A stretch of 64,000 bases of DNA, from assembly GCA_051313645.2 (NCBI GenBank), contig JBNRSN020000089.1:2666001-2730000 (forward strand). Reading direction: 5' to 3'. Of the stretch, positions 1 through 63,168 are shown one piece after another. The DNA comes from Centroscyllium fabricii (taxonomy: Eukaryota). The notes beneath the pieces were generated by a model, which saw only the letters and a list, made by a program, of their open reading frames with translations, was not told where the DNA came from and ran no database searches. The position numbers and the translations under genes are program-made. Every line of letters starts with the position of its first letter. Within the stretch, counting starts at the first letter, position 1.

Positions 1-3000
1 AATGTCCATATGTGCACAATACATAAGACATTTTCAATCTGTGTACAATACATCAGACATTATCCATCTGTGTACAATACATCAGACAATATCCATCTGT
101 GAATAATACATCAGAAAATGTCCATCTGTGTACAATACATCAGACATTATCCATCTGTGAACAATACATCAGACAATAACCATCTGTGAAAAATATATCA
201 GACATTATTCATCTGTGTACAATACATCAGAAAATGTCCATCTGTGTACAATACATCAGACAATATCCATCTGTGTACAACACATCAGACATTATCCATC
301 TGTGAACAATACATCAGATATTATCCATCTATGTACAACACATCAGACAATATCCATCTGTGTACAAAACATCAGACAATGTCCATCTGTGTACAATCCA
401 ACAGACAGTATCCAGCTGTGTACAATATATCAGAGAATGTCCATCTTTGTACAGTACATCAGACAATATTTATCTGTGAACAATATATCAGAAAATATCC
501 ATCTGTGTACAATATATCAGACAATATCCATCTGTGAACAATATATCAGACAATGTCCATCTGTGTTGAATACATCTGACAATGTCCACCTGTGTACAAT
601 ACATCAGAAAATATGCATCTGTGTACAAAACATCAGACAATGTCCATCTGTGAATAATATATCAGACAATTTCCATCTTTGAGCAATACATCAGACAATA
701 TCCATCTGTGTACAATATATCAGACAATGTCCATCTGTGCACAATACATCAGTCAATGTCCATCTGTGAACAATACAACAGACAATGACCATCTGTGTAT
801 AAAACATCAGATATTGTCCATCTGTGTACAATATATCAGACATTATCCATCTGTGTACAATACATCAGAAAATGTCCATCTGTGTACAATGCATCAGACA
901 ATGTCCATCTGTGAACAATACATCAGAGAATATCCATCTGTGTACAAAACATCAGACATTGTCCATCTGTGTACAATACATCAGAAAATGTCCATCTGTG
1001 AACAATACATCAGACAATGTCCATCTGGGAACAATACATCAGACAATGTCCATCTGTGTACAATACATCAGACAATGTCCATCTGTGTACAGTACAACAG
1101 ACAATGTCCATCTGTGTACAGTACATCAGACAATATCCTTCTTTGAACAGTACATCAGACAATGTCCATCTGTGTACAATACATCAGACACTGTCCATCT
1201 GTGTACAATACATCAGAAAATTTCCATCTGTGAACAATACATAAGAAAATATCCATCTGTGTACAGTACATCAGACAATGTCCATCAGTGTACAATATAT
1301 CAGAAAATGTCCATCTGTGAGCAATACATAAGACATTATCCATCTGTATACAATACATCAGACATTATCCATCTGTGTACAATACATCAGAAAATGTCCA
1401 TCTGTGAACAATAATTAAGACATTATCCATCAGTGTACAATACATCAGATATTATCCACCTGTGATCAATACATCAGACTTAACCATCTGTGTACAATAC
1501 ATCAGACAAATGTCCATCTGTGTACAATACATCAGACAATATCCATCTGCGTAAAATACATCAGACAATGTCCATCTGTGTACAATGCATCAGACAATAT
1601 CCATCTGTGAACAATACATCAGAAAATGTCCGTCTGTGCACAATACATAAGACATTATCAATCTGTGTAGAATACATCAGATATTATGCATCTGTGTACA
1701 ATACATCAGACAATATACATCTGTGAACAATACATCAGAAAATGTCCATCTGTGAACAATACATAATACATTATCCATCTGTATACAATACATCAGACAT
1801 TATCCATCTGTGTACAATACATCAGAAAATGTCCATCTGTGAACAATATATAAGACATTATCCATCAGTGTACAATACATCAGATATTATCCACCTGTGA
1901 ACAATACATCAGACAATATCCATCTGTGTACAATACATCAGACAAATGTCCGTCTGTGTACAATACATCAGACAATATCCATCTGCGTAAAATACATCAG
2001 ACAATGTCCATCTGTGTACAATACATCAGACAATATCCATCTGTGAACAATACATCAGAAACTGGCCGTCTGTGCACAAAACATAAGACATTAGCAATCT
2101 GTGTACAGTACATCAGATATTATGCATCTGTGTACAATACATCAGACAATATACATCTGTGTACAATACATCAGACAATGTCCATCTGTGTACAGTACAT
2201 CAGACAATGTCCATCTGTGTACAGTGCATCAGACAATATCCTTCTTTGAACAGTACATCAGACAATGACCATCTCTGTACAATACATCAGACACTGTCCA
2301 TCTGTGTACAATACATCAGAAAATATCCATCTGTGAACAATACATACGAAAATATCCATCTGTGTACAGTACATCAGACAATGTCCATCTGTGTACAATA
2401 CATTAGAAAATGTCCATCTGTGAACAATGCATAAGACATTATCCATCTGTATACAATACATCAGACATTATCCATCTGTGTACAATACATCAGAAAATAA
2501 ACATCTGTGAACAATACATAAGACATTATCCATCAGTGTACAATACATCAGGCATTATCCACCTGTAAACAATACATCAGACAATATCCATCTGTGTACA
2601 ATACATCAGTCAAATTTCCATCTGTGTACAATACATCAGACAATATCCATCTGCGTAAAATACATCAGACAATGTCCATCTGTGTACAATACATCAGACA
2701 TTATCCATCTGTGTACAATACATCAGACATGGTCCATCTGTTTATAATACATCAGACATTATCCATCTGTGAACAATACATCAGACATGGTCCATCTGTG
2801 AACAATACATCAGACATTATCCATCTGTGTACATCACATCAGACAATATCCATCTGTGTACAATACATCAGACAATGCCCATCTGTGTACAATCCATCAG
2901 ACAATATCCATCTGTGTACAATACATCAGAGAATGTCCATCTGTGTACAGTACATCAGACATTATCTCTCTGTGAACAATACATCAGACAATGTCCATCT

Positions 3001-3078
3001 TTGTACAATACATCAGACAATATCCATCTGTGTACAACACATCAGACATTATCCATTTGTGAACAATACATCAGACAA
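1..3078. repeat. 29-bp satellite array, left block (about 105 diverged monomers)
   Basis: Head-to-tail copies of TGTACAATACATCAGACAATGTCCATCTG with point variants. Local duplications at offsets of about 436 (ORFs 1490/1926) and about 1103 (ORFs 1155/2258). Confidence 0.99.
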
Positions 3079-3226
3079 AAAAAAAATGATGAAACAGACT
3101 AAGTTAGAAATACAGAAAGCACTGGAGGAAGATGCCACAGTCTATGAATATGACGGTGTTTATGATGAACTTCAACAGAAGAAGATGGAAAGCAATGCAA
3201 AGTTACTGTCTGGTACAAATAAACAG
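3077..3226 (+). pseudogene. NSRP1: Fragment of nuclear speckle splicing regulatory protein 1 (NSRP1/CCDC55): end of one exon joined to the complete next exon
   Basis: Translates KKKMMKQ-TKLEIQKALEEDATVYEYDGVYDELQQKKMESNAKLLSGTNKQ, matching recalled human NSRP1 KKQAMKQTKLEIQKALAEDATVYEYDSIYDEMQKKKEENNPKLLLGKDRK. 3098-3226 is 129 nt and ends CAG|GTAGAT (donor GT at 3227). No other NSRP1 exon is visible in the window. Confidence 0.9.
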
Positions 3227-3360
3227 GTAGATGTACTAATTGAGAAATTATTTAAATTTTGTACAGCTGAGATTCGCAGAAACAAAAATCTCCCACCACT
3301 GCCCTTTGTTGGGACTTTCCACACCAAGGGCCATCTCTGGCCAAGAGAGCATTCATCTAA

Positions 3361-4301
3361 TATAAGAACATAAGAAATAGGAGCAGGACTAGGCCAATCG
3401 GCCCCTCGAGCCCGCTCCGCCATTCAACGAGATCATGGCTGATCTGATCCTAACCTCAATTTTACTTTTACTCTCCATCCCGCCCAAACCCATGTGATCA
3501 CCCGGGAGAGATGAAAAACCAGATTTTAAAAACCCAGTGGCCAATTTGGGAGAAAAAATCTGGGAAATTCCTCTCCGACCCATTTAGGCGATCGAAAACT
3601 GGTCCAGGAGATCACATGGCCGATCTGAACCTAGCCTCACGTCCACTTACCTGCCCGCTCACCATAACACCCAATTCCCTTTACTTCCAGGAAACTGTCT
3701 ATCTTTGTTTTAAATTTATTCAATGTAGTAGCTTCCACAGCTCTCTGGGGCAGCAAATTCCACAGCCCCACCACCCTCTGAGTGAAGAAGTTTCTCCTCA
3801 TCTCAGTTTTGAAATGGCAGCCCCTTATTTTAAGATCATGCCCCCTAGTCCTCACCGCATCCACCCGATCAAGCCCTCTCACAATCTTATATGTTTCAAT
3901 AAGATCGCCTCTCATTCTTCTGAACTCCAATGAGTAGAGGCCCAATCTACTCAACCTCTCGTCATATGTCAGCCCCCTCATCCCCGGAATTAACCTAGTG
4001 AACCTTCTTTGCACTGCCTCGAGAGCAAGTATGTCCTTTCTTAAATGTGGACACCAGAACTGCGCGCAGTACTCCAGGTGTGGTCTCAACAATACCCTGT
4101 ACAACTGCAGCAAGACCTCCCTGCTTTTATACTCCATCCCCTTAGCAATAAAAGCCAACATTCTGTTGGTCTTCATGACCACCTGCTGCACCTGCATACT
4201 AACTTTTTGTGTTTCCTGCACCAGGACCCCCAGATCCCTTTGCACTGAAGTACTTTCCAGTTTTTTTCCATTTAGATAATAACTCGCTCTATTATTTTCC
4301 T
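3361..4301 (-). mobile_element. 5'-truncated CR1/HER1-type LINE (ORF2 C-terminus, 3' UTR and tail)
   Basis: ORF 4245-3637 reads QRDLGVLV...LYRVLLRPHLEYCAQFWCP...LEAVQRRFTRLIPG...RRMRGDLIETYKI...RTRGH...RRNFFTQRVVGLWN, typical CR1 ORF2 C-terminus. Octamer tail seen as ATAAGAACATAAGAA on +. Short in-frame deletion near 3850 (the FPLVGES-like segment is missing). Confidence 0.95.
3490..3619 (-). other. Predicted multi-stem RNA module in the CR1 3' UTR
   Basis: Nested complementary arms read by eye: 3490-3505/3604-3619 (14 Watson-Crick pairs plus one G-U on the minus strand), 3506-3510/3571-3575, 3519-3527/3555-3563 (9/9) and 3533-3536/3547-3550. Confidence 0.55.
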
Positions 4302-4412
4302 AATCCTCTGCCAGCACTGGTCTGAAACCACCCATCAGACGGTGCATAAGATTAAATTGCGATGTTGCACTCTCTCATTTTACCCCTCTGGCCTGGCCAA
4401 GGTTTGGTACTT

Positions 4413-4569
4413 AAGCAAAATACTGTTGCTGCTGAAAATATGAAATAAAACCAGAAAATGCTGGAAGTACTCAGCAGGTCAGGCAGCATCTGTGGAGAGA
4501 ACAACGTTTAACATTTCAGATCGATGACCGTTCATCAGGAAAGGTCATCGAACTGAAACGTTATCTCTG
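4413..4569. mobile_element. Penelope-like (pLTR-derived) inverted repeat: left arm and start of right arm
   Basis: AAATAAAACCAGAAAATGCTGGAAGTACTCAGCAGGTCAGGCAGCATCTGTGGAGAGA is nearly the reverse complement of 5481-5539. The centre has GATCGATGACCGTTC facing GAAAGGTCATCGAAC, plus hammerhead-type motifs. Confidence 0.7.
4509..4538 (-). ncRNA. Degenerate minimal hammerhead ribozyme core
   Basis: Minus strand reads CUGAUGA-ac-GGUC-auc-GAUC-u-GAAA-ug-UUA: core boxes, stem II and a UH site. Stem III is mutated (GAAAUG instead of GAAACG) and no good stem I is present. Confidence 0.55.
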
Positions 4570-5478
4570 CAGATGACACGATAATTGGTGGGGTGGTAAA
4601 TAGCGAGGAGGGAAGCCTCAGTCTGCAGGACGATATAGATGGGTTGGTCAGATGGGCGGAACAGTGGCAAATGGAATTTAACCCTGAAAAGTGTGAGGTG
4701 ATGCTTCTTGGGAGGACTAACAAGGCAAGGCAATGAATGGTAAGACCCTAGGAAGGATAGAGGATCAGAGGGACCTTGATGTGCATGTACATAGATCCCT
4801 GAAGGCAGCAGGACAGGTAGATAAGGTGGTTAAAAAGGCATATGGGATACTTGCCTTCATTAGCTGAGGCATAGAATATAAGAGCAGGGAGGTTATGATG
4901 GAGCTGTACAAAACTCTAGTAAGGCCACAGCTGGAGTACTGTGTGCAGTTCTGGTGGCCACACTATAGGAAGGATGTGATTGCTTTGGAGAGGGTGCAGA
5001 GGAGATTCACCAGAATGTTACCTGGGCTGGAGCGCTTCAGCTATGAAGAAAGGCTGGACAGGCTGGGGTTCTTTTCCTTGGAGCAGTGAAGGCTGAGGGG
5101 GGAACTGATTGAGGTGTACAAAATTATGAGGGGCATAGATAGGGTAGATAGAAAGGAACTTTTCCCTTAGTAGAGGGGTCAATAACCAGGGGGCATAGTT
5201 TCAAGGTAAGGGGCAGGAGGTTTAGAGGGGATTTGAGGAAGAACTTTTTCACCCAGAGGGTGGTTGGAATCTGGAACTCACTGCCTGAAAGGGTGGTGGA
5301 GGCAGGAACCCTCACAACATTCAAGAAGCATTTAGATGAGCACTTGAAATGCCATAGCATACAAGGCTACGGACCAAATGCTGGAAAATGGGATTAGAAT
5401 AGACAGGGCTTGATGGCCAGCGTGGACGCGATGGGCCGAAGGGCCTCTTTCTGTGCTGTTTAACTCTGTGACTCTATG
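4568..5478 (+). mobile_element. 5'-truncated, inactivated CR1/HER1-type LINE inserted in the Penelope-derived repeat
   Basis: Starts at the RT motif (F)ADDT.IGG, then WAEQWQMEFNPEKC and LYKTLVRPQLEYCVQFWWP...LERVQRRFTRMLPG, with premature TGA codons. 3' end has GATGGGCCGAAGGGCCT and tail ACTCTGTGACTCTATG. Confidence 0.95.
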
Positions 5479-5539
5479 TTTCTCTCTCCACAGAAGCTGC
5501 CTGACCGGCTGAGTATTCCCAGCATTTTCTGTTTTATTT
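5478..5539. mobile_element. Remainder of the right arm of the Penelope-derived inverted repeat
   Basis: GTTTCTCTCTCCACAGAAGCTGCCTGACCGGCTGAGTATTCCCAGCATTTTCTGTTTTATTT is an inverted copy of 4443-4500. Confidence 0.75.
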
Positions 5540-6023
5540 AATGTTCTTACAATCCCTTGGGAAGTAAGCTTGAGGATTGAATGTCTAAACCCATGTCCTA
5601 TTGTGCCACTAAACTATCATGCTGTCAGCCAGACAATTATTTTTTTAGCTAATTAATTGCTAATCCAAAGCATTTTGCAAATGCTTTTAATGGGTAATAA
5701 ATAGACTGAAAGGCCACTCAAGCTTTGGCAATAAAGCTATCCCTTAAGGATGGAGCATGTTAGAAATAAAGAATAGTGGCCCAGGTTGAATAGTAATTAA
5801 AACTTCTATTGCTCAGTAATTATTTTTATCTGGAATGTTCATAATGGATAGAAAGTGACGATGTATATTGTTTTTATGAGGTATGAAGTTTTAATTGCTC
5901 TTTATGTGTTCCTTTCATATCTATTCACAGCAGTTTAATTTTTTAAATACTTGAAATTGGTATTGAAATTGAAGTCAACAAATCTTGTCCTTTTTGTATT
6001 TTTACTCAATTAAAATAAATGTT

Positions 6024-6225
6024 ATCATAGAATCCCTACAGTGCAGATAGAGGCCATTTCGGCCTATCGAGCCTGCATCGACACATATCCCACCCTATCC
6101 CCGTAACCCCACACATTCAATCCCCCTAACACTGAGGGTCAATTTATCCTGGCCAATCAACCTAACCCGCACATCTTTGGACTGTGTGAGGAAACCGGAG
6201 CATCCGGAGGAAACCCACGCAGACA
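6024..6225 (-). mobile_element. HE1-type V-SINE, 3' portion, cut at the satellite junction
   Basis: Reverse complement matches the 3' two-thirds of the SINE at 30501 (TGTCTGCGTGGGTTTCCTCCGG...CACTGTAGGGATTCTATGAT). The tRNA-derived head is absent. Confidence 0.93.
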
Positions 6226-8329
6226 ATGTCCATCTGTGTACAATACATCAGACAATGTCCATCTGCGAACAAAACATCAGACAATATCCATCTCTGAACA
6301 ATGCATCAGAGAATATCCATCTGTGTACAATACATCAGACAATATCCATCTGTGTACAATAGGTCAGACATTATCCATCTGTATACAATTCATCAGACAT
6401 TATCCATCTGTGTACAATACATCTGACTGTATCCGTCTGGGAACAATACATCAGACAATGTCCATCTGTGTACAATAAATCAGACAATGTCCGTCTGTGA
6501 ACAATACATAAGACAATGACCATCTTGTGTTCAATACATCAGACAATGTCCATCTGTGTACAATACATCAGACAACGTCCATCTGTGAACAATACATCAG
6601 ACAATATCCATCTGTGAACAATACATCAGACAATGTCCATCAGTGTACAGTACATCAGACAATGTCCATCTGTGTACAATGCATCAGACTATGTCCATCT
6701 GTGAACAAAACATCAGACAACATCCATCTCTGAAAAATACATCAGAGAATGTCCATCTGTGTACAATACATCAGACATTATCCATCTGTGTACAAAACAT
6801 CAGAAAATGTCCATCTGTGAACACTACATAAGACATTATCTATCTGTGTACAATACATCAGACATTATCCATCTGTATACAATACATCAGACAAATGTCC
6901 ATTTGTGTACAATACATCAGACAATATCCATCAGTGTACAATACATCAGACAATGTCCATCTGTGTACAATACATCAGACAATATCCATCTGTGAACAAT
7001 ATATCAGACAATGTCCATCTGTGCACAATACATAAGACATTTTCAATCTGTGTACAATACATCAGACATTATCCATCTGTGTAAAATACATCAGACAATA
7101 TCCATCTGTGAATAATACATCAGAAAATGTCCATCTTTGTACAATACATCAGACATTATCCATCTGTGAATATCAAATCAGACAATATCCATCTGTGTAC
7201 AATGCATCAGACAATGTCCATCTGTGAACAATACATCAGACAATATCCAACTGTGTAGAAAACATCAGACATTGTCCATCTGTGTACAATACATCAGACA
7301 TTATCCATCTGTGAATAACAGATCAGACAATATCCATCTGTATACAATGCATCAGACAATGTCCATCTGTGTACAATACATCAGACATTGTCCGTCTGTG
7401 TACAATACATCAGACAATGTCCATCTGTGAACAATACATCAGACAATGTCCATCAGTTTACAATAAATCAGACAATGTCCATCTGTGAACAAAACATCAG
7501 ACAATATCCATCTGTGTACAATACTTCATAGAATGTACATCTGTGAACAATAAATCAGACAATGTCCATCTGTGAACAATATATCAGACAATGTCCATCT
7601 GTGTACAATACATCAGATATTGTCCATCTGTGTACAATACATCAGACATTGTCCATCTGTGTACAATACATCTGACAATATCCATCTGTGTACAATACAT
7701 CAGACAATGTCCATCTGTGAACAACACATCAGACAATGTCCATCTGTGAACAATTCATCTGCGAATGCCCATCTGTGTACAATACATCAGACAATGTCCA
7801 TCTGTGTACAATACATCAGACAATATCCATCTTTGAACAATACATCAGACAATGTCCATCTGTGTACTATCCATCAGAAAATGTCCATCTGTGAACAATC
7901 CATAAGACAAAATCCATCTGTGTAGAGTACATCAGACAATGTCCATCTGTGTACAATACATCAGACAATGTCCATCTGTGTACAATACATCAGACAATGT
8001 CCATCTGTGTACAATACATCAGACAATATCCATTTTTGAACAATACATCAGACAATGTCCATCTGTGTACAATCCATCAGAAAATGTCCATCTGTGAACA
8101 ATCCATAAGACAAAATCCATCTGTGTAGAGTACATCAGACAATGTCCATCTGTGTACAATACATCAGACATTGTCCATCTGTGTACAATACATCAGACAT
8201 TATCCATCTGTATACAATACATCAGATATTATCCATCTGTGTACAATACATCAGACAATGTCAATCTGTGTACAATACATCAGACAACGTCCATCTGTGA
8301 ACAATACATCAGACAATATCCATCTGTGA

Positions 8330-11300
8330 ACAATACAACAGACAATGTCCATCTATGTACAATACATCAGACTATGTCCATCTGTGAACAAAACATCAGA
8401 CAACATCCATCTCTGAAAAATACATCAGTGAATGTCCATCTGTGTACAATACATCAGACATTATCCATCTGTGTACAATACATCAGACAATATCCATCTG
8501 TGAACAATACATCAGACAATGTCCATCTGTGGACAATACATCAGACAATGTCCATCTGTGTACAATACATAAGACAATGTCCATCTTGTGTACAATGCAA
8601 CAGACAATGTCCATCTGTGTACAATACATCAGACAATGTCCATCTTTGAACAATACATCAGACAATATCCATCTGTGAACAATACATTAGACAATATCCA
8701 TCTGTGTACAATACATCAGACAATGTCCATCTGTGTACAATACATCAGACATTGTCCTTCTGTGTACAATACATCAGACAATATCCATCTGCGTGCAATA
8801 TATCAGACAATGTCCATCTGTGAACAATACATCAGATAATGTCCATCTGTGTACAATACATCAGACAATGTCCATCTGTGTACAATACATCAGACAATAT
8901 CCATCTGTGAACAATACATCAGATAATGTCCATCTGTGTAGAATACATCAGAAAATGTCCATCTGTGAACAATCCATAAGACAATATCCATCTGTGTAAA
9001 GTACATCAGACAAAGTCCATCTGTGTACAACACATAAGATAATGTCCATCTGTGAACAAAATATCAGACAATATCCATCTCTGAAAAATACATCAGAGAA
9101 TGTCCATCTGTGTACAATACATCAGACATTATCCATCTGTGTACAATACATCAGAAAATATCCATCTGTGAACAATATTTCAGACAATGTCCACCTGTGG
9201 ACAATACATCAGACAATGTCCATCTGTGTACAATACATAAGACAATGTCCATCTTGTGTACAATATATCAGACAGTGTCCATCTGTGTACAATACATCAG
9301 ACAATGTCCAATTTTGAACAATACATCAGACAATATCCATCTGTGGAAAATACATCAGACAATATCCATCTGCGTACAATACATCAGACAATGTCCATCT
9401 GTACAATATATCAGACAATGTGCATCTGTGTACAATACAGCAGATAATATGCATCTGTGTACAATACATCAGACAATGTCCATCTGTGAACAATACCTCA
9501 GACCATTTCCATGAGTGAACAATAAATCAGACAATATCCATCTGTGTACAATACATCAGCCAATGTCCATCTGAGCACAATACATCAGACAATGTCCAGC
9601 AGTGAACAATACATCAGACAATGTCCATCTGTGTACAATACATCAGACGTTGTCCATCTGTGTACAATATATCAGACATTATCGATCTGTGTACAATACA
9701 ACAGAAAATGTCCATCTGTGTACAATGCATCAGACAATGTCCATCTGTGAACAATACATCAGACAATGTCCATCTGTGTACAATACATCAGACAATGTCC
9801 ATCTATGAACAATACATCAGACAATATCCATCTGTGGACAATACATCAGACAATATCCATCTGTGTACAATACATCAGACAATGTCCATCTGTACAATAC
9901 ATCAGACAATGTCCATCTGTGTACAATACATCAGACATTATCCATCTGTGTACAATACATCAGACAATGTCCATCTGTGAACAATAAATCAGACAATATC
10001 CATCTGTGAGCAACACATCATTCAATGTCCATCTATGTACAATACATCAGACAATGTCCATCAGTGTACAGTACATCAGACAATGTCCATCTGTGAACAA
10101 TACATCAGACAATGTCCACCTGTGGACAATACATCAGACAATGTCCATCTGTGTACAATACATAAGACAATGTCCATCTTGTGTACAATACATCAGACAG
10201 TGTCCATCTGTGTACAATACATCAGACAATGTCCAATTTTGAACAATACATCAGACAATATCCATCTGTGGACAATACATCAGACAATATCCATCTGTGT
10301 ACAATACATCAGACAATGTCCATCTGTACAATACATCAGACAATGTCCATCTGTGTACAATACATCAGACATTATCCATCTGTGTATAATACATCAGACA
10401 ATGTCCATCTGTGAACAATAAATCAGACAATATCCATCTGTGAACAACACATCAGACAATTTCCATCTGTGTACAATACATCAGACAACATCCATCTGTG
10501 TACAATACATCAGACAATGTCCATCTGTGAACAATACATCAGATAATGTCCATCTGTGTACAATACATCAGACAATATCCATCTGTGTACAGTACATCAG
10601 ACAATGTCACCTGTGTACAGTACATCAGATATTATCCATCTGTGTACAATACATCAGACATTGTCCTTCTGTGTACAATACATCAGAAAATGTCCATCTG
10701 TACAATACATCAGACAATGTCCATCTGTGTACAATACATCAGACATTATCCATCTGTGTACAATACCTCAGACAATGTCCATCTGTGAACAATAAATCAG
10801 ACAATATCCATCTGTGAACAACACATCAGACAATGTCCATCTGTGTACAATACATCAGACAATATCCATCTGTGTACAATACGTCAGACAATATCCATCT
10901 GTGTACAGTATATCAGACAATGTCCATCTGTGTACAATACATCAGACAACATCCATCTGTGTACAATACATCAGACAATGTCCATCTGTGAATAATACAT
11001 CAGATAATGTCCACCTGTGTACAATACATCAGACAATGTCCATCTGTGTACAGTACATCAGACAATGTCACCTGTGTACAATACATCAGATATTATCCAT
11101 CTGTGAACAATTCATCAGACAACATCCATCTGTGTACAAAACATCTGACATTGTCCATCTGTGTACAATTAATCAGACCATTTCCATCTGTGAACAATAA
11201 ATCAGACAATATCCATCTGTGTACAATACATCAGCCAATGTACATCTGTGCACAATATATCAGACAATGTCCAACTGTGAACAATACATCAGACAATGTC

Positions 11301-29900: not shown

Positions 29901-30500
29901 GTACAATACATCAGACAATATCCAACAGTGTACAATATATCAGACAATGTCCATCTGTGAACAATACATCAGATAATGTCCATCTGTGTGCAATACATCA
30001 GATAATGTCCATCTGTGTACAATACATCAGACAATATCCATCTGTGAACAATACATCAGATTATGTCCATCTGTGTACAATACATCAGAAAATGTCCATC
30101 TGTGAACAATCCATAAGACAATATCCATCTGTGTACAGTACATCAGACAATCTGTGACATTACATCAGATAATGTCCATCTGTGTACAATACATCAGACA
30201 TTGTCCATCTGTGTACAATACATCAGACAATATCCATCTGTGTACAATATATCAGACAATGTCCATCTTTGAACAATACATCAGACAATATCCATCTGTG
30301 AACAATACATCAGACAATATCCATCTGTGTACAATGCAACAGACAATGTCCATCTGTGTACAATACATCAGACAATGTCCATCTTTGAACAATACATCAG
30401 ACAATATCCATCTGTGAACAATACATCAGACAATATCCATCTGTGTACAATACATCAGACAATGTCCATCTGTGTACAATACATCAGACCTTGTCCTTCT

Positions 30501-30826
30501 GTGGCATAGTGGTTAGCACATTTGCCTCACAGCGCCAGGGATCCGGGTTCAAATCCAGCCTCAGGTGACTATCTGTGTGGAGTTTGCACATTCCCTCCGT
30601 GTCTGCGTGGGTTTCATCCGGGTGCTCCGGTTTCCTCCCACAGTCCAAAGATGTGCGTGTTACGTTGATTGGCCAGGATAAATTGACCCTTAGTTTTAGT
30701 GGGAATTAGGGGATTAGGCGGATTAAATATGTGGGGTTACGGGGATAGGGTGGGATATGTGTCGGTGCAGGCTCGATGGACCGAAATGGCCTCTATCTGC
30801 ACTGTAGTGATTCTATGATTCTATGA
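30501..30826 (+). mobile_element. HE1-type tRNA-derived V-SINE, variant A
   Basis: A box TGGCATAGTGG (30502-30512), B box GGTTCAAATCC (30546-30556), V-domain GTGTGGAGTTTGCAC...CCACAGTCCAAAGATGTGC, CR1-like 3' end with (ATTCTATG)2 tail. Confidence 0.95.
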
Positions 30827-32920
30827 ATGTCCATCTGTGTACAATACATCAGATAATGTCCATCTGTGATCAAAATATCAGACAATATCCATCTCTGAAA
30901 AATACATCAGAGAATGTCCATCTGTGAACAATACATCAGACATTATCCATCTGTGTACAATACATCAGACATTATCCATCTGTGAACAATACATCAGAAA
31001 ATGTCCACCTGTGGACAATACATCAGACAATGTCCATCTGTGTAGAATACATAAGACAATGTCCATCATGTGTACAATACATCAGATAGTGTCCATCTGT
31101 GTACAATACATCAGACAATGTCCAATTTTGAACAATACAGCAGACAATATCCATCTACGGACAATACATCAGACAATATCCATCTGTATACAATACATCA
31201 GACAATGTCCATCTGTACAATACATCAGAAAATGTCCATCTGTGTACAATACATCAGAAATTATCCATCTGTGTATAATACATCAGACAATGTCCATCTG
31301 TGAACAATAAATCAGACAATATCCATCTGTGAACAACACATCAGACAATGTCCATCTGTGTACAATACATCAGACAATATCCATCTGTGTACAATATATC
31401 AGACAATATCAATCTGTGTACAGTATATCAGAAAAATGTCCATCTGTGTACAATACATCAGACAATATCCATCTGTGTACAATACATCAGACAATGTCCA
31501 TCTGTGAACAATACATCAGATAATGTCCATCTGTGTACAATACATCAGACAATATCCATCTGTGTACAGTACATCAGACAATGTCACCTGTGTACAGTAT
31601 ATCAGATATTATCCATCTGTGAACAATACATCAGACAACATCCATCTGTGAACAATACATCAGACAAATTTCCATCTGTGTACAATACATCAGACAATAT
31701 CCATCAGTGTACAATAAATCAGACAATGTCCATCTGTGTACAATACATCAGACAAATGTCCAACTGCGTACAATACATCAGACAATATCCATCAGTGTAC
31801 AATACATCAGACAATGTCAAACTGTGTACAATACATAAGACGTTATCTATCTGTGTACAATACATCAGATATTATCCATCTGTGAACAATACATCAGACA
31901 ATATCCATCTCTGTACAATACATCAGACAAATGTCCATCTGTGTACAATACATCAGACAATATCCATCAGTGTACAATACATCAGACAATGTCCATCTGT
32001 GTACAATACATCAGACAATATCCATCTGTGAACAATATATCAGAAAATGTCCATCTGTGCACAACACATAAGACATTATCAATCTGTGTACAATACATCT
32101 GACATTAACCATCTGTGTAAAATACATCAGACAATATCCATCTGTGAATAATACATCAGAAAATGTCCATCAGTGTACAATACATCAGACATTATCCATC
32201 TGTGAATAACACATCAGACAATATCCGTCTGTGTACAATGCATCAGACAATGTCAATCTGTGAACAATACATCAGACAATATCCATCTGTTTAGAAAACA
32301 TCAGACATTGTCCTTCTGTGTACAATACATCAGACAATATACAACTGTGTACAATATATCAGACAATGTCCATCTGTGAACAATACATCAGATAATGTCC
32401 ATCTGTGTACAATACATCAGACAATGTCCATCTGTGTACAATACATCAGACAATATCCATCTGTGAACAATACATCAGATTATGTCCATCTGTGTACAAT
32501 ACATCAGAAAATTTCCATCTGTGAACAATCCATAAGACAATATCCATCTGTGTACAGTACATCAGAAAATCTGTGAGCAATACATCAGATAATGTCCATC
32601 TGTGTACAATACATCAGACAATGTCCATCTGGGTACAATACATCAGACAATATCCATCTGTGTACAATACATCAGACAATGTCCATCTTTGAACAATATA
32701 TCAGACAATATCCATCTGTGAACAATACATCAGACAATATCCATCTGTGTACAATGCAACAGACAATGTCCATTTGTGTACAATACATCAGACAATGTCC
32801 ATCTTTGAACAATACATCAGACAATATCCATCTGTGAACATCACATCAGACAATATCCATCTGTGTACAATACATCAGACAATGTCCATCTGTGTACAAT
32901 ACATCAGACCTTATCCTTCT

Positions 32921-33246
32921 GTGGCATAGTGGTTAGCACTGTTGCCTCACTGTGCCAGGGACCCGGGTTCAAATCCAGCCTCAGGTGACTATCTGTGTGG
33001 AGTTTGCACATTCTCTCCGTGTCTGCGTGGGTTTCCTCCGGGTGCTCCGGTTTCCTTCCACAGTCCAAAGATGTGCGGGATAGGTTGATTGGCCAGGATA
33101 AATTGACCCTTAGTGTTAGGGGGAATTAGGGGATTAGGCGGATTAAATATGTGGGGTTACGGGGATAGGGTGGGATATGTGTCGGTGCAGGCTCGATGGG
33201 CCGAAATGGCCTCTATCTGCACTGTAGTGATTCTATGATTCTATGA
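32921..33246 (+). mobile_element. HE1-type V-SINE, variant B
   Basis: Same element and junctions as 30501, 2420 bp downstream. Diagnostic CACTGTGCC, CCTTCCAC and ATGGGCCG. Confidence 0.95.
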
Positions 33247-42200: not shown

Positions 42201-42771
42201 GTACAATATATCAGACAATGTCCATCTGTGAACAATACATCAGATAATGTCCATCTGTGTACAATACATCAGACAATTTCCATCTGTGTACAATACATCA
42301 GACAATATCCATCTGTGAACAATACATCAGATTATGTCCATCTGTGTACAATACATCAGAAAATGTCCATCTGTGAACAATCCATAAGACAATATCCATC
42401 TGTGTACAGTACATCAGACAATCTGTGACAATACATCAGATAATGTCCATCTGTGTACAATACATCAGACATTGTCCATCTGTGTACAATACATCAGACA
42501 ATATCCATCTGTGTACAATACATCAGACAATGTCCATCTTTGAACAATAAATCAGACAATATCCATCTGTGAACAATACATCAGACAATATCCATCTGTG
42601 TACAATGCAACAGACAATGTCCATCTGTGTACAATACATCAGACAATGTCCATCTTTGAACAATACATCAGACAATATCCATCTGTGAACAATACATCAG
42701 ACAATATCCATCTGTGTACAATACATCAGACAATGTCCATCTGTGTACAATACATCAGACCTTGTCCTTCT

Positions 42772-43097
42772 GTGGCATATTGGTTAGCACTTTTGCCTCA
42801 CAGCGCCAGGGACCCGGGTTCAAATCCAGCCTCAGGTGACTATCTGTGTGGAGTTTGCACATTCTCTCCGTGTCTGCGTGGGTTTCATCCGGGTGCTCCG
42901 GTTTCCTCCCACAGTCCAAAGATGTGCGGGTTATGTTGATTGGCCAGGATAAATTGACCCTTAGTGTTAGTAGGAATTAGGGGATTAGGCGGATTAAATA
43001 TGTGGGGTTACGGGGATAGGGTGGGATATGTGTCAGTGCAGGCTCGATGGACCGAATTGGCCTCTATCTGCACTGTAGTGATTCTATGATTCTATGA
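42772..43097 (+). mobile_element. HE1-type V-SINE, variant A
   Basis: Same junctions. A box mutated to TGGCATATTGG. Confidence 0.95.
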
Positions 43098-45191
43098 ATG
43101 TCCATCTGTGTACAATACATCAGATAATGTCCATCTGTGATCAAAATATCAGACAATATCCATCTCTGAAAAATACATCAGAGAATGTCCATCTGTGAAC
43201 AATACATCAGACATTATCCATCTGTGTACAATACATCAGACATTATCCATCTGTGAACAATACATCAGAAAATGTCCACCTGTGGACAATGCATCAGACA
43301 ATGTCCATCTGTGTAGAATACATAAGACAATGTCCATCTTGTGTACAATACATCAGATAGTGTCCATCTGTGTACAATACATCAGACAATGTCCAATTTT
43401 GAACAATACATCAGACAATATCCATCTACGGACAATACATCAGACAATATCCATCTGTGTACAATACATCAGACAATGTCCATCTGTACAATACATCAGA
43501 CAATGTCCATCTGTGTACAATACATCAGAAATTATCCATCTGTGTATAATACATCAGACAATGTCCATCTGTGAACAATAAATCAGACAATATCCATCTG
43601 TGAACAACACATCAGACATTGTCCATCTGTGTACAATACATCAGACAATATCCATCTGTGTACAATATATCAGACAATATCCATCTGTGTACAGTATATC
43701 AGAAAAATGTCCATCTGTGTAAAATACATCAGACAATATCCATCTGTGTACAATACATCAGACAATGTCCATCTGTGAACAATACATCAGATAATGTCCA
43801 TCTGTGTACAATACATCAGACAATATCCATCTGTGTACAGTACATCAGACAATGTCACCTGTGTACAGTATATCAGATATTATCCATCTGTGAACAATAC
43901 ATCAGACAACATCCACCTGTGTACAATACATCAGACAAATGTACATCTGTGTACAATACATCAGACAATATCCATCAGTGTACAATAAATCAGACAATGT
44001 CCATCTGTGTACAATACATCAGACAAATGTCCAACTGCGTACAATACATCAGACAATATCCATCAGTGTACAATACATCAGACAATGTCAAACTGTGTAC
44101 AATACATAAGACGTTATCTATCTGTGTACAATACATCAGATATTATCCATCTGTGAACAATACATCAGACAATATCCATCTCTGTACAATACATCAGACA
44201 AATGTCCATCTGTGTACAATATATCAGACAATATCCATCAGTGTACAATACATCAGACAATGTCCATCTGTGTACAATACATCAGACAATATCCATCTGT
44301 GAACAATATATCAGAAAATGTCCATCTGTGCACAACACATAAGACATTATCAATCTGTGTACAATACATCTGACATTAACCATCTGTGTAAAATACATCA
44401 GACAATATCCATCTGTGAATAATACATCAGAAAATGTCCATCAGTGTACAATACATCAGACATTATCCATCTGTGAATAACACATCAGACAATATCCGTC
44501 TGTGTACAATGCATCAGACAATGTCAATCTGTGAACAATACATCAGACAATATCCATCTGTTTAGAAAACATCAGACATTGTCCTTCTGTGTACAATACA
44601 TCAGACAATATACAACTGTGTACAATATATCAGACAATGTCCATCTGTGAACAATACATCAGATAATGTCCATCTGTGTACAATACATCAGACAATGTCC
44701 ATCTGTGTACAATACATCAGACAATATCCATCTGTGAACAATACATCAGATTATGTCCATCTGTGTACAATACATCAGAAAATGTCCATCTGTGAACAAT
44801 CCATAAGACAATATCCATCTGTGTACAGTACATCAGACAATCTGTGAGCAATACATCAGATAATGTCCATCTGTGTACAATACATCAGACAATGTCCATC
44901 TGGGTACAATACATCAGACAATATCCATCTGTGTACAGTACATCAGACAATGTCCATCTTTGAACAATACATCAGACAATATCCATCTGTGAACAATACA
45001 TCAGACAATATCCATCTGTGTACAATGCAACAGACAATGTCCATCTGTGTACAATACATCAGACAATGTCCATCTTTGAACAATACATCAGACAATATCC
45101 ATCTGTGAACATAACATCAGACAATATCCATCTGTGTACAATACATCAGACAATGTCCATCTGTGTACAATACATCAGACCTTATCCTTCT

Positions 45192-45517
45192 GTGGCATAG
45201 TGGTTAGCACTGTTGCCTCACTGTGCCAGGGACCCGGGTTCAAATCCAGCCTCAGGTGACTATCTGTGTGGAGTTTGCACATTCTCTCCGTGTCTGCGTG
45301 GGTTTCCTCCGGGTGCTCCGGTTTCCTTCCACAGTCCAAAGATGTGCGGGATAGGTTGATTTGCCAGGATAAATTGACCCTTAGTGTTAGGGGGAATTAG
45401 GGGATTAGGCGGATTAAATATGTGGGGTTACGGGGATAGGGTGGGATATGTGTCGGTGCAGGCTCGATGGGCCGAAATGGCCTCTATCTGCACTGTAGTG
45501 ATTCTATGATTCTATGA
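45192..45517 (+). mobile_element. HE1-type V-SINE, variant B
   Basis: Same junctions. B-type diagnostic bases. Confidence 0.95.
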
Positions 45518-50946: not shown

Positions 50947-51354
50947 CCTTGGAAAAAAGAAGGTGGAGGGGTGACATGATTGAGGTGTACAAGATCATGA
51001 GGGGACACGATAGGGTAGACAAAGGGGCATTGTTTCCCCTGGTGGGAGAGTCAAGCACTAGGGGACATAGATTCAAGATCAGGGGGGGGAGGTTTAGGGG
51101 GGAGGTAAGGAGAAATTTCTTTACCCAGAGGGTGGTGGAAGACTGGAACTCCCTGCCTGTGAGGGTGGTGGAGGCAGGAACCAACACAACATTTAAAAAA
51201 TACTTGGACCAGCACATGAAGGACCATAACATACAGGGTTATGGGCCAGTTGCGGGCAACTGGGGTTAGAACAGTGAGGAGTTTTTCTGGGCCGGTGCGG
51301 ACTGGATGGGCCGAATGGCCCTTATCCGCACTGTAAAATTTCTATGATTCTATG
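50947..51354 (+). mobile_element. 5'-truncated CR1/HER1 LINE 3' end (408 bp) inserted in the satellite
   Basis: LEKRRWRGDMIEVYKIMRG...FPLVGESSTRGH...RRNFFTQRVVEDWNSLP, open to the stop codon. 3' end GATGGGCCGAATGGCC with tail TTCTATGATTCTATG. AATG duplicated on both sides. Confidence 0.95.
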
Positions 51355-53013
51355 AATGACCATCTTGTGTACAATACATCAGACAATGTCCATCTGTGTA
51401 CAATACATCAGACAACGTCCATCTGTGAACAATACATCAGACAATGTCCATCTGTGAACAATACATCAGACAATATCCATCTGTGTACAATACATCAGAC
51501 AATATCCATCAGTGTACAATACATCAGACAATATAAATCTGTTTACAGTACATCAGAAAATGTCCATCTGTGTGCAGTACATCAGACAATATCCATCTGT
51601 GTACAATACATCAGACAATGTCCATCTGTGAACAACACATCAGACAATGTCCATCTGTGTACACTACATCAGACAATGTCCATCTGTGTACAGTACATCA
51701 GCAAATGTGCATCTGTGTAAAGTACATCAGACAATGTCCTTCTGTATATAGTACATCAGACAATGTCCATCTGTGTACAATACATCAGACACTGTCCACC
51801 TGTGTACAATACATCAGAAAATGTCCATCTGTGAACAATACATAAGACAATATCCATCTGTGTACAGTACACCAGACAATGTCCATCTTTGTACAATGCG
51901 CCAGAAAATGTCCATCTGTGAACAATACATGAGACATTATACATCTGTGAACAATACATCAGACAATATCCATCTGTGAACAATACATCAGACAATGTCC
52001 ATCTGTGTACAATACATCAGACAATGTCCATCTGTGAACAAAACATCAGACCACATCCATCTCTGAAAAATACATCAGAGAATGTCCATCTGTGTACAAT
52101 ACATCAGACATTATCCATCTGTATACAATATATCAGACAATAACCATCTGTGAACAATACATCAGACAATGTCCATCTGTGGACAATACATCAGACAATG
52201 TCCATCTGTGTACAATACATAAGACAATGTCCATCTTGTGTACAATGCAACAGACAATGTCCATTTGTGTACAATACATCAGACAAGGTCCATCATTGAA
52301 CAATACATCAGACAATATCCATCTGTGAACAATACATCAGACAATATCCATCTGTGTACAATACATCAGACAATGTCCATCTGTGTACAATACATCAGAC
52401 ATTGTCCTTCTGTGTGCAATACATCAGACAATATTCAACAGTGTACAATATATCAGACAATGTCCATCTGTGAACAATACATCAGATAATGTCCATCTGT
52501 GTACAATACATCAGACAATTTCCATCTGTGTACAATACATCAGACAATATCCATCTGTGAACAATACATCAGATTATGTCCATCTGTGTACAATACATCA
52601 GAAAATGTCCATCTGTGAACAATCCATAAGACAATATCCATCTGTGTACAGTACATCAGACAATCTGTGACAATACATCAGATAATGTCCATCTGTGTAC
52701 AATACATCAGACATTGTCCATCTGTGTACAATACATCAGACAATATCCATCTGTGTACAATACATCAGACAATGTCCATCTTTGAACAATAAATCAGACA
52801 ATATCCATCTGTGAACAATACATCAGACAATATCCATCTGTGTACAATGCAACAGACAATGTCCATCTGTGTACAATACATCAGACAATGTCCATCTTTG
52901 AACAATACATCAGACAATATCCATCTGTGAACAATACATCAGACAATATCCATCTGTGTACAATACATCAGACAATGTCCATCTGTGTACAATACATCAG
53001 ACCTTGTCCTTCT

Positions 53014-53339
53014 GTGGCATAGTGGTTAGCACTTTTGCCTCACAGCGCCAGGGACCCGGGTTCAAATCCAGCCTCAGGTGACTATCTGTGTGGAGTTTGC
53101 ACATTCTCTCCGTGTCTGCGTGGGTTTCATCCGGGTGCTCCGGTTTCCTCCCACAGTCCAAAGATGTGCGGGTTATGTTGATTGGCCAGGATAAATTGAC
53201 CCTTAGTGTTAGTGGGAATTAGGGGATTAGGCGGATTAAATATGTGGGGTTACGGGGATAGGGTGGGATATGTGTCAGTGCAGGCTCGATGGACCGAAAT
53301 GGCCTCTATCTGCACTGTAGTGATTCTATGATTCTATGA
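53014..53339 (+). mobile_element. HE1-type V-SINE, variant A
   Basis: Same junctions. 10242 bp after the 42772 copy. Confidence 0.95.
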
Positions 53340-55433
53340 ATGTCCATCTGTGTACAATACATCAGATAATGTCCATCTGTGATCAAAATATCAGACAATA
53401 TCCATCTCTGAAAAATACATCAGAGAATGTCCATCTGTGAACAATACATCAGACATTATCCATCTGTGTACAATACATCAGACATTATCCATCTGTGAAA
53501 AATACATCAGAAAATGTCCACCTGTGGACAATGCATCAGACAATGTCCATCTGTGTAGAATACATAAGACAATGTCCATCTTGTGTACAATACATCAGAT
53601 AGTGTCCATCTGTGTACAATACATCAGACAATGTCCAATTTTGAACAATACATCAGACAATATCCATCTACGGACAATACATCAGACAATATCCATCTGT
53701 GTACAATACATCAGACAATGTCCATCTGTACAATACATCAGACAATGTCCATCTGTGTACAATACATCAGAAATTATCCATCTGTGTATAATACATCAGA
53801 CAATGTCCATCTGTGAACAATAAATCAGACAATATCCATCTGTGAACAACACATCAGACAATGTCCATCTGTGTTCAATACATCAGACAATATCCATCTG
53901 TGTACAATATATCAGACAATATCCATCTGTGTACAGTATATCAGAAAAATGTCCATCTGTGTACAATACATCAGACAATATCCATCTGTGTACAATACAT
54001 CAGACAATGTCCATCTGTGAACAATACATCAGATAATGTCCATCTGTGTACAATACATCAGACAATATCCATCTGTGTACAGTACATCAGACAATGTCAC
54101 CTGTGTACAGTATATCAGATATTATCCATCTGTGAACAATACATCAGACAACATCCACCTGTGTACAATACATCAGACAAATGTACATCTGTGTACAATA
54201 TATCAGACAATATCCATCAGTGTACAATAAATCAGACAATGTCCATCTGTGTACAATACATCAGACAAATGTCCAACTGCGTACAATACATCAGACAATA
54301 TCCATCAGTGTACAATACATCAGACAATGTCAAACTGTGTACAATACATAAGACGTTATCTATCTGTGTACAATACATCAGATATTATCCATCTGTGAAC
54401 AATACATCAGACAATATCCATCTCTGTACAATACATCAGACAAATGTCCATCTGTGTACAATACATCAGACAATATCCATCAGTGTACAATACATCAGAC
54501 AATGTCCATCTGTGTACAATACATCAGACAATATCCATCTGTGAACAATATATCAGAAAATGTCCATCTGTGCACAACACATAAGACATTATCAATCTGT
54601 GTACAATACATCTGACATTAACCATCTGTGTAAAATACATCAGACAATATCCATCTGTGAATAATACATCAGAAAATGTCCATCAGTGTACAATACATCA
54701 GACATTATCCATCTGTGAATAACACATCAGACAATATCCGTCTGTGTACAATGCATCAGACAATGTCAATCTGTGAACAATACATCAGACAATATCCATC
54801 TGTTTAGAAAACATCAGACATTGTCCTTCTGTGTACAATACATCAGACAATATACAACTGTGTACAATATATCAGACAATGTCCATCTGTGAACAATACA
54901 TCAGATAATGTCCATCTGTGTACAATACATCAGACAATGTCCATCTGTGTACAATACATCAGACAATATCCATCTGTGAACAATACATCAGATTATGTCC
55001 ATCTGTGTACAATACATCAGAAAATGTCCATCTGTGAACAATCCATAAGACAATATCCATCTGTGTACAGTACATCAGACAATCTGTGAGCAATACATCA
55101 GATAATGTCCATCTGTGTACAATACATCAGACAATGTCCATCTGGGTACAATACATCAGACAATATCCATCTGTGTACAGTACATCAGACAATGTCCATC
55201 TTTGAACAATACATCAGACAATATCCATCTGTGAACAATACATCAGACAATATCCATCTGTGTACAATGCAACAGACAATGTCCATCTGTGTACAATACA
55301 TCAGACAATGTCCATCTTTGAACAATACATCAGACAATATCCATCTGTGAACATAACATCAGACAATATCCATCTGTGTACAATACATCAGACAATGTCC
55401 ATCTGTGTACAATACATCAGACCTTATCCTTCT

Positions 55434-55759
55434 GTGGCATAGTGGTTAGCACTGTTGCCTCACTGTGCCAGGGACCCGGGTTCAAATCCAGCCTCAGGTG
55501 ACTATCTGTGTGGAGTTTGCACATTCTCTCCGTGTCTGCGTGGGTTTCCTCCGGGTGCTCCGGTTTCCTTCCACAGTCCAAAGATGTGCGGGATAGGTTG
55601 ATTTGCCAGGATAAATTGACCCTTAGTGTTAGGGGGAATTAGGGGATTAGGCGGATTAAATATGTGGGGTTACGGGGATAGGGTGGGATATGTGTCGGTG
55701 CAGGCTCGATGGGCCGAAATGGCCTCTATCTGCACTGTAGTGATTCTATGATTCTATGA
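55434..55759 (+). mobile_element. HE1-type V-SINE, variant B
   Basis: Same junctions. 10242 bp after the 45192 copy. Confidence 0.95.
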
Positions 55760-61101: not shown

Positions 61102-61509
61102 CCTTGGAAAAAAGAAGGTGGAGGGGTGACATGATTGAGGTGTACAAGATCATGAGGGGACACGATAGGGTAGACAAAGGGGCATTGTTTCCCCTGGTGG
61201 GAGAGTCAAGCACTAGGGGACATAGATTCAAGATCAGGGGGGGGAGGTTTAGGGGGGAGGTAAGGAGAAATTTCTTTACCCAGAGGGTGGTGGAAGACTG
61301 GAACTCCCTGCCTGTGAGGGTGGTGGAGGCAGGAACCAACACAACATTTAAAAAATACTTGGACCAGCACATGAAGGACCATAACATACAGGGTTATGGG
61401 CCAGTTGCGGGCAACTGGGGTTAGAACAGTGAGGAGTTTTTCTGGGCCGGTGCGGACTGGATGGGCCGAATGGCCCTTATCCGCACTGTAAAATTTCTAT
61501 GATTCTATG
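61102..61509 (+). mobile_element. Duplicate of the 408-bp CR1 fragment
   Basis: Identical translation and junctions to 50947-51354, at offset 10155. Confidence 0.95.
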
Positions 61510-63168
61510 AATGACCATCTTGTGTACAATACATCAGACAATGTCCATCTGTGTACAATACATCAGACAACGTCCATCTGTGAACAATACATCAGACAAT
61601 GTCCATCTGTGAACAATACATCAGACAATATCCATCTGTGTACAATACATCAGACAATATCCATCAGTGTACAATACATCAGACAATATAAATCTGTTTA
61701 CAGTACATCAGAAAATGTCCATCTGTGTGCAGTACATCAGACAATATCCATCTGTGTACAATACATCAGACAATGTCCATCTGTGAACAACACATCAGAC
61801 AATGTCCATCTGTGTACACTACATCAGACAATGTCCATCTGTGTACAGTACATCAGCAAATGTGCATCTGTGTAAAGTACATCAGACAATGTCCTTCTGT
61901 ATATAGTACATCAGACAATGTCCATCTGTGTACAATACATCAGACACTGTCCACCTGTGTACAATACATCAGAAAATGTCCATCTGTGAACAATACATAA
62001 GACAATATCCATCTGTGTACAGTACACCAGACAATGTCCATCTTTGTACAATGCGCCAGAAAATGTCCATCTGTGAACAATACATGAGACATTATACATC
62101 TGTGAACAATACATCAGACAATATCCATCTGTGAACAATACATCAGACAATGTCCATCTGTGTACAATACATCAGACAATGTCCATCTGTGAACAAAACA
62201 TCAGACCACATCCATCTCTGAAAAATACATCAGAGAATGTCCATCTGTGTACAATACATCAGACATTATCCATCTGTATACAATATATCAGACAATAACC
62301 ATCTGTGAACAATACATCAGACAATGTCCATCTGTGGACAATACATCAGACAATGTCCATCTGTGTACAATACATAAGACAATGTCCATCTTGTGTACAA
62401 TGCAACAGACAATGTCCATTTGTGTACAATACATCAGACAAGGTCCATCATTGAACAATACATCAGACAATATCCATCTGTGAACAATACATCAGACAAT
62501 ATCCATCTGTGTACAATACATCAGACAATGTCCATCTGTGTACAATACATCAGACATTGTCCTTCTGTGTGCAATACATCAGACAATATTCAACAGTGTA
62601 CAATATATCAGACAATGTCCATCTGTGAACAATACATCAGATAATGTCCATCTGTGTACAATACATCAGACAATTTCCATCTGTGTACAATACATCAGAC
62701 AATATCCATCTGTGAACAATACATCAGATTATGTCCATCTGTGTACAATACATCAGAAAATGTCCATCTGTGAACAATCCATAAGACAATATCCATCTGT
62801 GTACAGTACATCAGACAATCTGTGACAATACATCAGATAATGTCCATCTGTGTACAATACATCAGACATTGTCCATCTGTGTACAATACATCAGACAATA
62901 TCCATCTGTGTACAATACATCAGACAAAGTCCATCTTTGAACAATAAATCAGACAATATCCATCTGTGAACAATACATCAGACAATATCCATCTGTGTAC
63001 AATGCAACAGACAATGTCCATCTGTGTACAATACATCAGACAATGTCCATCTTTGAACAATACATCAGACAATATCCATCTGTGAACAATACATCAGACA
63101 ATATCCATCTGTGTACAATACATCAGACAATGTCCATCTGTGTACAATACATCAGACCTTGTCCTTCT

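Follow-up and report, generated by a model that had tools for sequence, protein, structure and literature searches.

How does part of a protein-coding gene, with one of its introns missing and the next one present, come to lie within an otherwise nearly uniform satellite array? This question is raised by a 64,000-nucleotide stretch of DNA from the cartilaginous fish Centroscyllium fabricii (GenBank assembly GCA_051313645.2, contig JBNRSN020000089.1, forward-strand positions 2,666,001 to 2,730,000), which we call the window and in which all positions are counted from the first letter. A satellite with a 29-bp period covers 1-3078 and 6220-63999 of the window, as detected by Tandem Repeats Finder (TRF), and a k-mer mask leaves ten interruptions of the array, namely one 3.1-kb stretch at ~3077-6225, seven copies of a short interspersed nuclear element (SINE), and two copies of the 3' end of a long interspersed nuclear element (LINE). 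The 3.1-kb stretch is the sole long non-satellite stretch before 30 kb and is single-copy within the window, and it is this insert, which begins with coding sequence of the splicing-factor gene NSRP1, that is considered here. Very likely, it arose in the germ line of a cartilaginous fish, where an NSRP1 transcript that was spliced only in part was copied into DNA. A first-pass annotation of the same letters had suggested a semi-processed retrocopy or an RNA-templated repair patch, and this suggestion is largely supported. The insert is tailless, truncated at both ends, and joined to the satellite by microhomology.

The translation of 3077-3226 yields the residues KKKMMKQ, followed by a block of 43 residues that ends in NKQ, and directly thereafter a GT is found at 3227. 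This coding sequence matches the Pfam family NSRP1_N with an E-value of 9.2e-10, above the curated cut-off, and the top five of 146 protein matches (120 of them listed) are named NSRP1 proteins of cartilaginous fishes with 80-84% identity. Positions 3077-3097 (plus strand) correspond to the end of the upstream exon, which is 5'-truncated so that its last seven codons are present, and these agree in 7/7 residues with the catshark protein P0004 and in 5-6/7 with the other four named chondrichthyans. Positions 3098-3226 (plus strand) comprise the complete next exon, which has 129 nt or 43 codons (44 in birds and reptiles), matches NSRP1_N, and is open without any stop or frameshift. Its residues are identical to those of the named chondrichthyans at 34-36/43 positions, and these share 28-42/43 among themselves; relative to its named relatives, the exon is without excess decay. 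That the six residues before the Q of the upstream part arose at random has a chance of ~1e-9, or of ~1e-5 if the A-run is counted as free and only MMK is considered. An AG does exist at the junction (3096-3097), as part of the Gln codon CAG that ends the upstream exon, and the case for splicing thus rests on the upstream coding match and not on an absent AG. On the strength of this match, 3077-3097 is true exon sequence.

The first-pass annotation had read the order of elements as satellite, KKKMMKQ with the block ending in NKQ, a GT donor, about 3 kb of intron-like DNA and again satellite, and translation, TRF and the k-mer mask confirm this order. It had further stated that neither a polypyrimidine tract before 3098, nor poly(A), nor any further exon is present, and these statements hold as well: among the 20 nucleotides preceding the AG there are 4 pyrimidines, the only run of at least eight A or T in the 64 kb is a coding A10 at the 5' end of the insert (3077-3086), where it encodes KKK-M, and a tblastn search of the window with three named shark or ray NSRP1 proteins revealed no other NSRP1 exon, the remaining matches having E-values of at least 0.1 and lying in the satellite. 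The A10 run is ruled out as a poly(A) remnant, as it sits at the 5' end and codes for residues that are identical to those of the catshark.

Is there normally an intron at the junction 3097/3098? No exon map is given in the excerpts of two NSRP1 papers (PMC8191771, PMC12481690). Exon borders were taken from proteins that had been predicted straight across genomic contigs and therefore read through introns. Five such read-throughs, bird-like as judged by similarity (all taxon labels of proteins without names are based on similarity), carry a peptide rich in F, L, S and P that ends in Q ahead of the block, and V-D behind it. They were made into a profile, and the search with this profile and a further search gave 145 and 78 new proteins. 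Mammals stand outside the counts: 18 and 17 mammal-like proteins were set aside, plus 13 and 1 matches of earlier searches and the protein P0324. The 132 proteins that were classed comprise 56 with intron-type sequence on both sides of the block, 36 that start inside or just before the block, 29 that are spliced on both sides, 7 with exon-type sequence upstream and non-spliced sequence downstream, and 4 others. Right before the block, 52 of the 56 two-sided read-throughs, all taxa included, have Q or K, the codons of which are able to end in AG. Vertebrate-like, defined as at least 72% to a vertebrate block, are 98 proteins, of which 45 start inside the block, 16 are spliced, 1 was set aside, and 36 are informative read-throughs. 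All 36 of these have an intron exactly at the junction of KKKMMKQ and the block, and their sequence at this point ends in Q or K.

The plus-strand junction 3097/3098 of the insert is thus an exon-exon junction at the site of a phase-0 intron that is absent here. According to the read-throughs, the intron is ancestral and kept in bony vertebrates, bracketing the cartilaginous fishes, and its loss in the parent gene is unlikely. The first-pass annotation had placed an intron between MKQ and TKLE of vertebrate NSRP1 and had given 129 nt for the following exon. The first statement agrees with the 36/36 read-throughs, and the second with the 43 codons of the block, directly after which the read-throughs depart from the spliced protein. 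Its claim of a removed upstream and a retained downstream intron stands for the retention; for the removal it stands in so far as the upstream intron is found in bird-, fish- and invertebrate-like sequences, the intron of the source species itself being deduced from relatives.

The retention is illustrated by two proteins. P0155, a ray-like protein of the genomic type, and P0143, which is of the spliced type, have their exon residues in common and diverge directly after NKQ, and the peptide that is encoded in the window behind the donor is identical to P0155 in 12/16 positions, compared to at most 5/16 for 33 other read-throughs. This split and this match indicate that the DNA downstream of the exon is the true orthologous NSRP1 intron, at least at its start. 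The 5' splice site GTAGAT and the conserved beginning of the intron, as defined by the comparison of the read-through peptide with P0155, occupy 3227-3274 (plus strand), and the retained, 3'-truncated intron as a whole extends over 2,999 bp to 6225 (3227-6225, plus strand) without poly(A). The end of the upstream exon is precisely fused to the next exon, and the true downstream intron follows. The donor deviates from the consensus, and the V-D that it encodes after the exon recurs in both the bird-like and the ray-like read-throughs. Over its first 48 nt, the intron is conserved when the insert is compared with the ray-like sequence. GTAGAT could be a regulated, slowly spliced donor in this splicing-factor gene, which would account for the intron still being present.

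How is the insert joined to the satellite? At its 3' end, the six nucleotides CAGACA (6220-6225, plus strand) are common to the SINE in which the intron ends and to the satellite, and a random join would have a microhomology of at least 6 nt with a chance of ~0.002. Past the cut point, the SINE copies of the array have different bases in 3/3 cases inspected. When the antisense SINE past the cut is compared by eye with a satellite monomer from CAGACA onwards, 16/29 positions agree, which is not significant beyond the first six bases but could have helped the pairing. The 3' end has no A-run, and the nearest poly(A)-signal hexamer starts at 6009, more than 200 nt upstream; this distance and the missing tail rule out intronic polyadenylation as origin of the 3' end. 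A 3' transduction by the antisense SINE is likewise ruled out, as the splice junction is on the other strand. At its 5' end, the insert stops in the A-run, the first two A of which also fit the satellite, so that a microhomology of 2 nt is possible. Phase and orientation of the satellite are preserved across the insert: the left flank (1-3076, no strand assigned) consists of 29-bp monomers with an in-phase end at ...CATCAGAC, as judged from TRF, the junction and monomer statistics, and the right flank (6226-64000, no strand assigned) continues in the same orientation and phase.

The empty site was sought in the window, and nowhere in it is the left flank directly followed by the right flank. 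Six close paralogs of the right flank agree on the sequence that precedes them, with 3-11 mismatches in 116 bp, and the left flank of the insert, when compared with what precedes the five best right-flank paralogs, has 17-22 mismatches over 116 bp, which begin in the first monomer. For the SINE and LINE insertions of the array, the flanks have remained collinear, at best with 5-7 mismatches in 116 bp and in case of the SINE after a shift by one monomer. A deletion or jump at the join of the insert is thereby suggested. The target CAGAC/AATG has no match to TTTT/A, and 6220-6232 does not fit the A-rich target of the L1 type (W, then AAAA).

From these observations, a sequence of events may be proposed. 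If, as the relatives indicate, an intron exists in the parent gene at the place of the fusion, the template would be an RNA from which this intron had been removed and in which the next one had been kept, and the RNA origin of the insert is conditional on this property of the parent. A nick or break in the satellite would have left a 3' end that could pair with CAGACA in the antisense SINE 3 kb into the intron, and the paired satellite end may then have primed reverse transcription without the need for a poly(A) tail. The copying would have proceeded over 3.15 kb, across the splice junction, and may have halted within the A-run after 21 nt of the upstream exon, whereupon the end of the copy would have been joined to a satellite end; this joining probably made use of 2 nt of homology, and monomers were probably lost or exchanged on this occasion. 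The reverse transcriptase could be either a LINE enzyme acting in trans or a repair polymerase. The first-pass annotation had envisaged a nascent splicing intermediate as template, and of this the partly spliced RNA is supported; a nascent RNA is indistinguishable from a stable intron-retaining transcript that is primed internally, as either would give the same product. This product shows no sign of a promoter or function and is probably an inert, promoterless fragment.

One variant of this RNA-templated route deserves to be considered separately. A resident CR1-type LINE could have acted in trans by endonuclease-dependent target-primed reverse transcription (TPRT) at the nick site that serves its own insertions and those of the SINE, instead of a repair of a break that existed before, which we regard as possible but less likely than not among the ways in which an RNA could have been copied here. 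In line with this variant, the satellite continues after the SINE and LINE insertions of the array from the monomer position and on the strand that are also found for the insert (AATG at 30826, 33246, 51355 and, for the insert, 6225), CAGACAA, which every monomer supplies, is present on both sides of the insert and might represent a target-site duplication of 7 bp, the intron contains a sense LINE 3' end with its tail at 5471-5478, 750 nt before the end of the insert, and retrocopies are numerous in cartilaginous fishes (14,081 have been reported), with CR1 or Tx1 proposed as their source (bioRxiv 10.64898/2026.06.26.734816). However, given the 6-nt ambiguity, the resume phase would coincide by chance in about 1 in 8 cases (7/58 positions), and the flanks of the SINE and LINE insertions are collinear but those of the insert are not. 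Moreover, CR1 is described as stringent for its own 3' end (PMC5470649, PMC3747384), and the 3' end of the insert has no such tail, and the folding of the internal LINE 3' end does not surpass that of shuffled sequences (z -0.28). A bolder idea, which we regard as improbable, is that the sense LINE 3' end in the intron recruited a “stringent” CR1-type reverse transcriptase to the nascent host transcript, and that priming took place 750 nt further on, at the LINE/SINE monomer position. If this were true, stringent LINEs could gain access to nuclear pre-mRNA as a template by way of LINE ends embedded in introns, and an unread archive of the order of co-transcriptional splicing in the germ line of cartilaginous fishes would exist in satellite arrays, an archive that is missed by pipelines that require terminal exon junctions.

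What weighs against a partly spliced RNA as template? The evidence for the RNA origin consists of one junction with 21 nt on one side. Protein and profile searches found no chondrichthyan read-through over the upstream junction, and P0155, the only chondrichthyan read-through found, begins inside the exon. In four invertebrate-like read-throughs (P0250, P0252, P0262, P0270), the block is preceded by exon-type sequence and followed by an intron, which is the layout of the insert and implies that the upstream intron was lost in some lineages; the other three of the seven proteins in this class look misclassed, one having a fish-like intron ending and two being longer proteins without the keyed downstream motif. 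At the 5' end, the microhomology of ~2 nt is not significant, since at least 2 nt occur in 17% of chance joins, and its size depends on the parent. At the 3' end, the continuation of the SINE past the cut is taken from other members of the family and not from the parent intron. Finally, breaks of collinearity of the same size are also found at background positions of the array (8/87, 4/80, 10/54 and 1/87, i.e. 1-19%), which makes the deletion at the join suggestive only.

Several of these points would suit a DNA-level copy of a parent that was already without the upstream intron, either lineage-wide or in an allele or paralog from which cDNA recombination had deleted it. A genomic piece of 3.15 kb would then have been copied into the satellite by microhomology-mediated template switching, and at no time would a partly spliced RNA have served as direct template. 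The microhomology and the lack of a tail and of a clear target-site duplication suit DNA-templated insertions just as well (those of class 2; PMC5110952), an RNA-templated repair with deletion of a whole intron has been reported in human cells (PMC12065846), and the four invertebrate-like read-throughs as well as the missing chondrichthyan sequence over the junction are compatible with an intronless parent. Nevertheless, such a scenario needs two rare events instead of one, and the intron is absent in 0/36 informative vertebrate-like read-throughs. P0155 and 44 other vertebrate-like proteins begin at an internal Met, as would be caused by an in-frame stop or a TAG acceptor upstream, which is a weak hint that the intron is there as well. 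We consider this DNA-level scenario, although it is the main rival, quite improbable.

Still less probable is a chimera of the assembly or the library, for example a cDNA read that was merged into a satellite contig. Satellite arrays are admittedly hard to assemble, but both junctions are in monomer phase and orientation, an overlap of 2-6 nt is too small for a join made by an assembler, a genomic library has no reverse transcription step, and elsewhere in the same array higher-order duplications are resolved, in which the SINE and LINE insertions are consistent. The least tenable explanation is a working NSRP1 gene with giant satellite-filled introns, for which the open exon, its divergence within the ortholog range, the intact donor and a satellite AG at 3073-3074 could be cited, but in which the upstream exon would be cut after 7 codons, splicing at 3074 would require a new phase-1 intron without a pyrimidine tract and would replace a Leu that is conserved in five named chondrichthyans, no other exon was found with the three shark or ray proteins in the 3 kb upstream or the 57.8 kb downstream, and the intron stops in the middle of a SINE at a microhomology join.

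To which known kind of event does the copy of a partly spliced NSRP1 transcript then correspond? Semi-processed retrocopies are an old category (PMC3449122, PMC5470649), which is drawn with a tail and direct repeats. Like the rodent preproinsulin I type (PMC3449122), the insert is a copy of a partly processed pre-mRNA at a new place, with one intron gone and one kept; that type, however, has a poly(A) tail, flanking direct repeats and a retained 5' intron, whereas the insert is tailless, truncated at both ends, and has lost the upstream and kept the downstream intron. With the double-strand-break repair mediated by reverse transcription products (RMDR; PMC4516963), the insert shares the truncation of both ends, the lack of poly(A), a skipped intron and short microhomologies, but the two spliced RMDR captures compared here are mRNA pieces of 0.3-0.8 kb without introns, taken up at breaks that were induced in mouse zygotes, while the insert is natural, 3.15 kb long, 95% intron, and located in cartilaginous-fish satellite DNA. 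Templated sequence insertions of class 2 (PMC5110952) resemble it by their distant template, the lack of a tail and poly(A) signal, the microhomology and possibly a microdeletion. The survey of these insertions lists both spliced cDNA and intronic templates, but the insert joins a spliced junction and a retained intron in one piece, and that survey discarded alpha-satellite sequences. Tailless retropseudogenes (PMC5322556, PMC2912911) also have no oligo(A) tail, a 3' end that is complementary to the target, and internal priming, but they are therian, made by L1, mostly derived from small RNAs, and have clear duplications at A-rich sites, whereas the site of the insert is not A-rich on the L1 consensus.

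A classical processed pseudogene or class 1 templated insertion, as made by TPRT of L1 with a poly(A) tail, a duplication of at least 5 bp and a TTTT/A target, does not match in view of the missing tail and the target CAGAC/AATG. A CR1-mobilised element would be recognised by a stem-loop and repeat tail at the RNA's 3' end, and the 3' end of the insert is in an antisense SINE; a functional NSRP1 gene would have a complete upstream exon, an acceptor and further exons, none of which is present in the window. The insert works like a patch mediated by reverse transcription with a semi-processed template and not like a classical processed pseudogene. Having no tail and being truncated at both ends, it is a variant of semi-processed retrocopies and of break patches mediated by reverse transcription, both of which are described kinds. 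Among the matches listed, no title or abstract opening deals with an NSRP1 copy of a shark or with a partly spliced insert within satellite DNA, which is weak evidence of absence, as subscription literature is thinly covered.

What would such a copy mean? It would be a natural germ-line case, outside mammals, of a nuclear, partly spliced transcript being copied into DNA without a tail, and such copying is rarely documented and known mostly from induced breaks and from surveys of human polymorphisms. As a single and probably inert event it alters no model on its own. Satellite arrays in long-read assemblies, however, constitute a nearly blank background, against which RNA patches are easy to spot and to count, and such patches would make the rate and the enzymology of RNA-templated insertion testable across vertebrates.

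The coding part of the insert preserves those Met codons that serve as the start of several annotated NSRP1 isoforms, and a 95-codon frame that reaches into the intron is predicted at 3086-3373. The intron itself consists largely of nested repeat debris, as is typical of old intron DNA. An antisense LINE 3' fragment (3364-4299, minus strand) contains an open reading frame at 3637-4299 and agrees with the sense LINE copy to 68% over 282 bp. The sense LINE 3' fragment (4570-5478, plus strand), which is internal to the insert and ends in a short repeat tail with its motif at 5471, has an RVT_1 match with an E-value of 1.8e-4, below the curated cut-off, and agrees to 74% over 408 bp with the LINE ends inserted in the array. 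This fragment splits a fold-back element (4437-5545, no strand assigned) with arms at 4437-4500 and 5483-5545, which match each other in inverted orientation to 89% over 64 bp, and with an inner palindrome at 4509-4563; the region 4430-4570 folds with a z of -5.3, and the element measures ~190 bp when the LINE fragment is discounted. A search of Rfam found nothing in 2900-6400 at E-values up to 1, so that the fold-back element is not accounted for by a ribozyme or small RNA. The antisense SINE (6024-6225, minus strand), which is cut within the element by the 3' end of the insert, agrees to 85-87% with the seven SINE copies of the array. The LINE fragments are presumably CR1, judging by their motifs and tail; the Penelope label for one of the intron repeats is putative, what is present being the fold-back element.

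The other interruptions of the array are all on the plus strand, the SINE copies at 30490-30825, 32910-33245, 42761-43096, 45181-45516, 53003-53338, 55423-55758 and 63158-63493 and the LINE 3' end copies at 50947-51354 and 61102-61509. As candidates for more captured host RNAs these GC-rich interruptions are ruled out, as they are seven copies of one SINE insertion and two of one LINE 3' end. Both insertions bear the same short repeat tail and appear to have occurred once each and to have been multiplied by higher-order duplication; in fact, near-identical higher-order repeats of ~10.2 kb and ~12.3 kb, marked by these insertions, are found in 30000-64000 (e.g. 50947/61102 and 30504/42775). That the SINE and the LINE insertions both resume the satellite at one monomer position hints at a preferred nick site within the satellite. 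Close paralogs within the window are fewer for the left block 1-3076 than for 6226-9500, from which it also differs slightly in its variant frequencies, as if the insert had been placed at the border of two sub-arrays.

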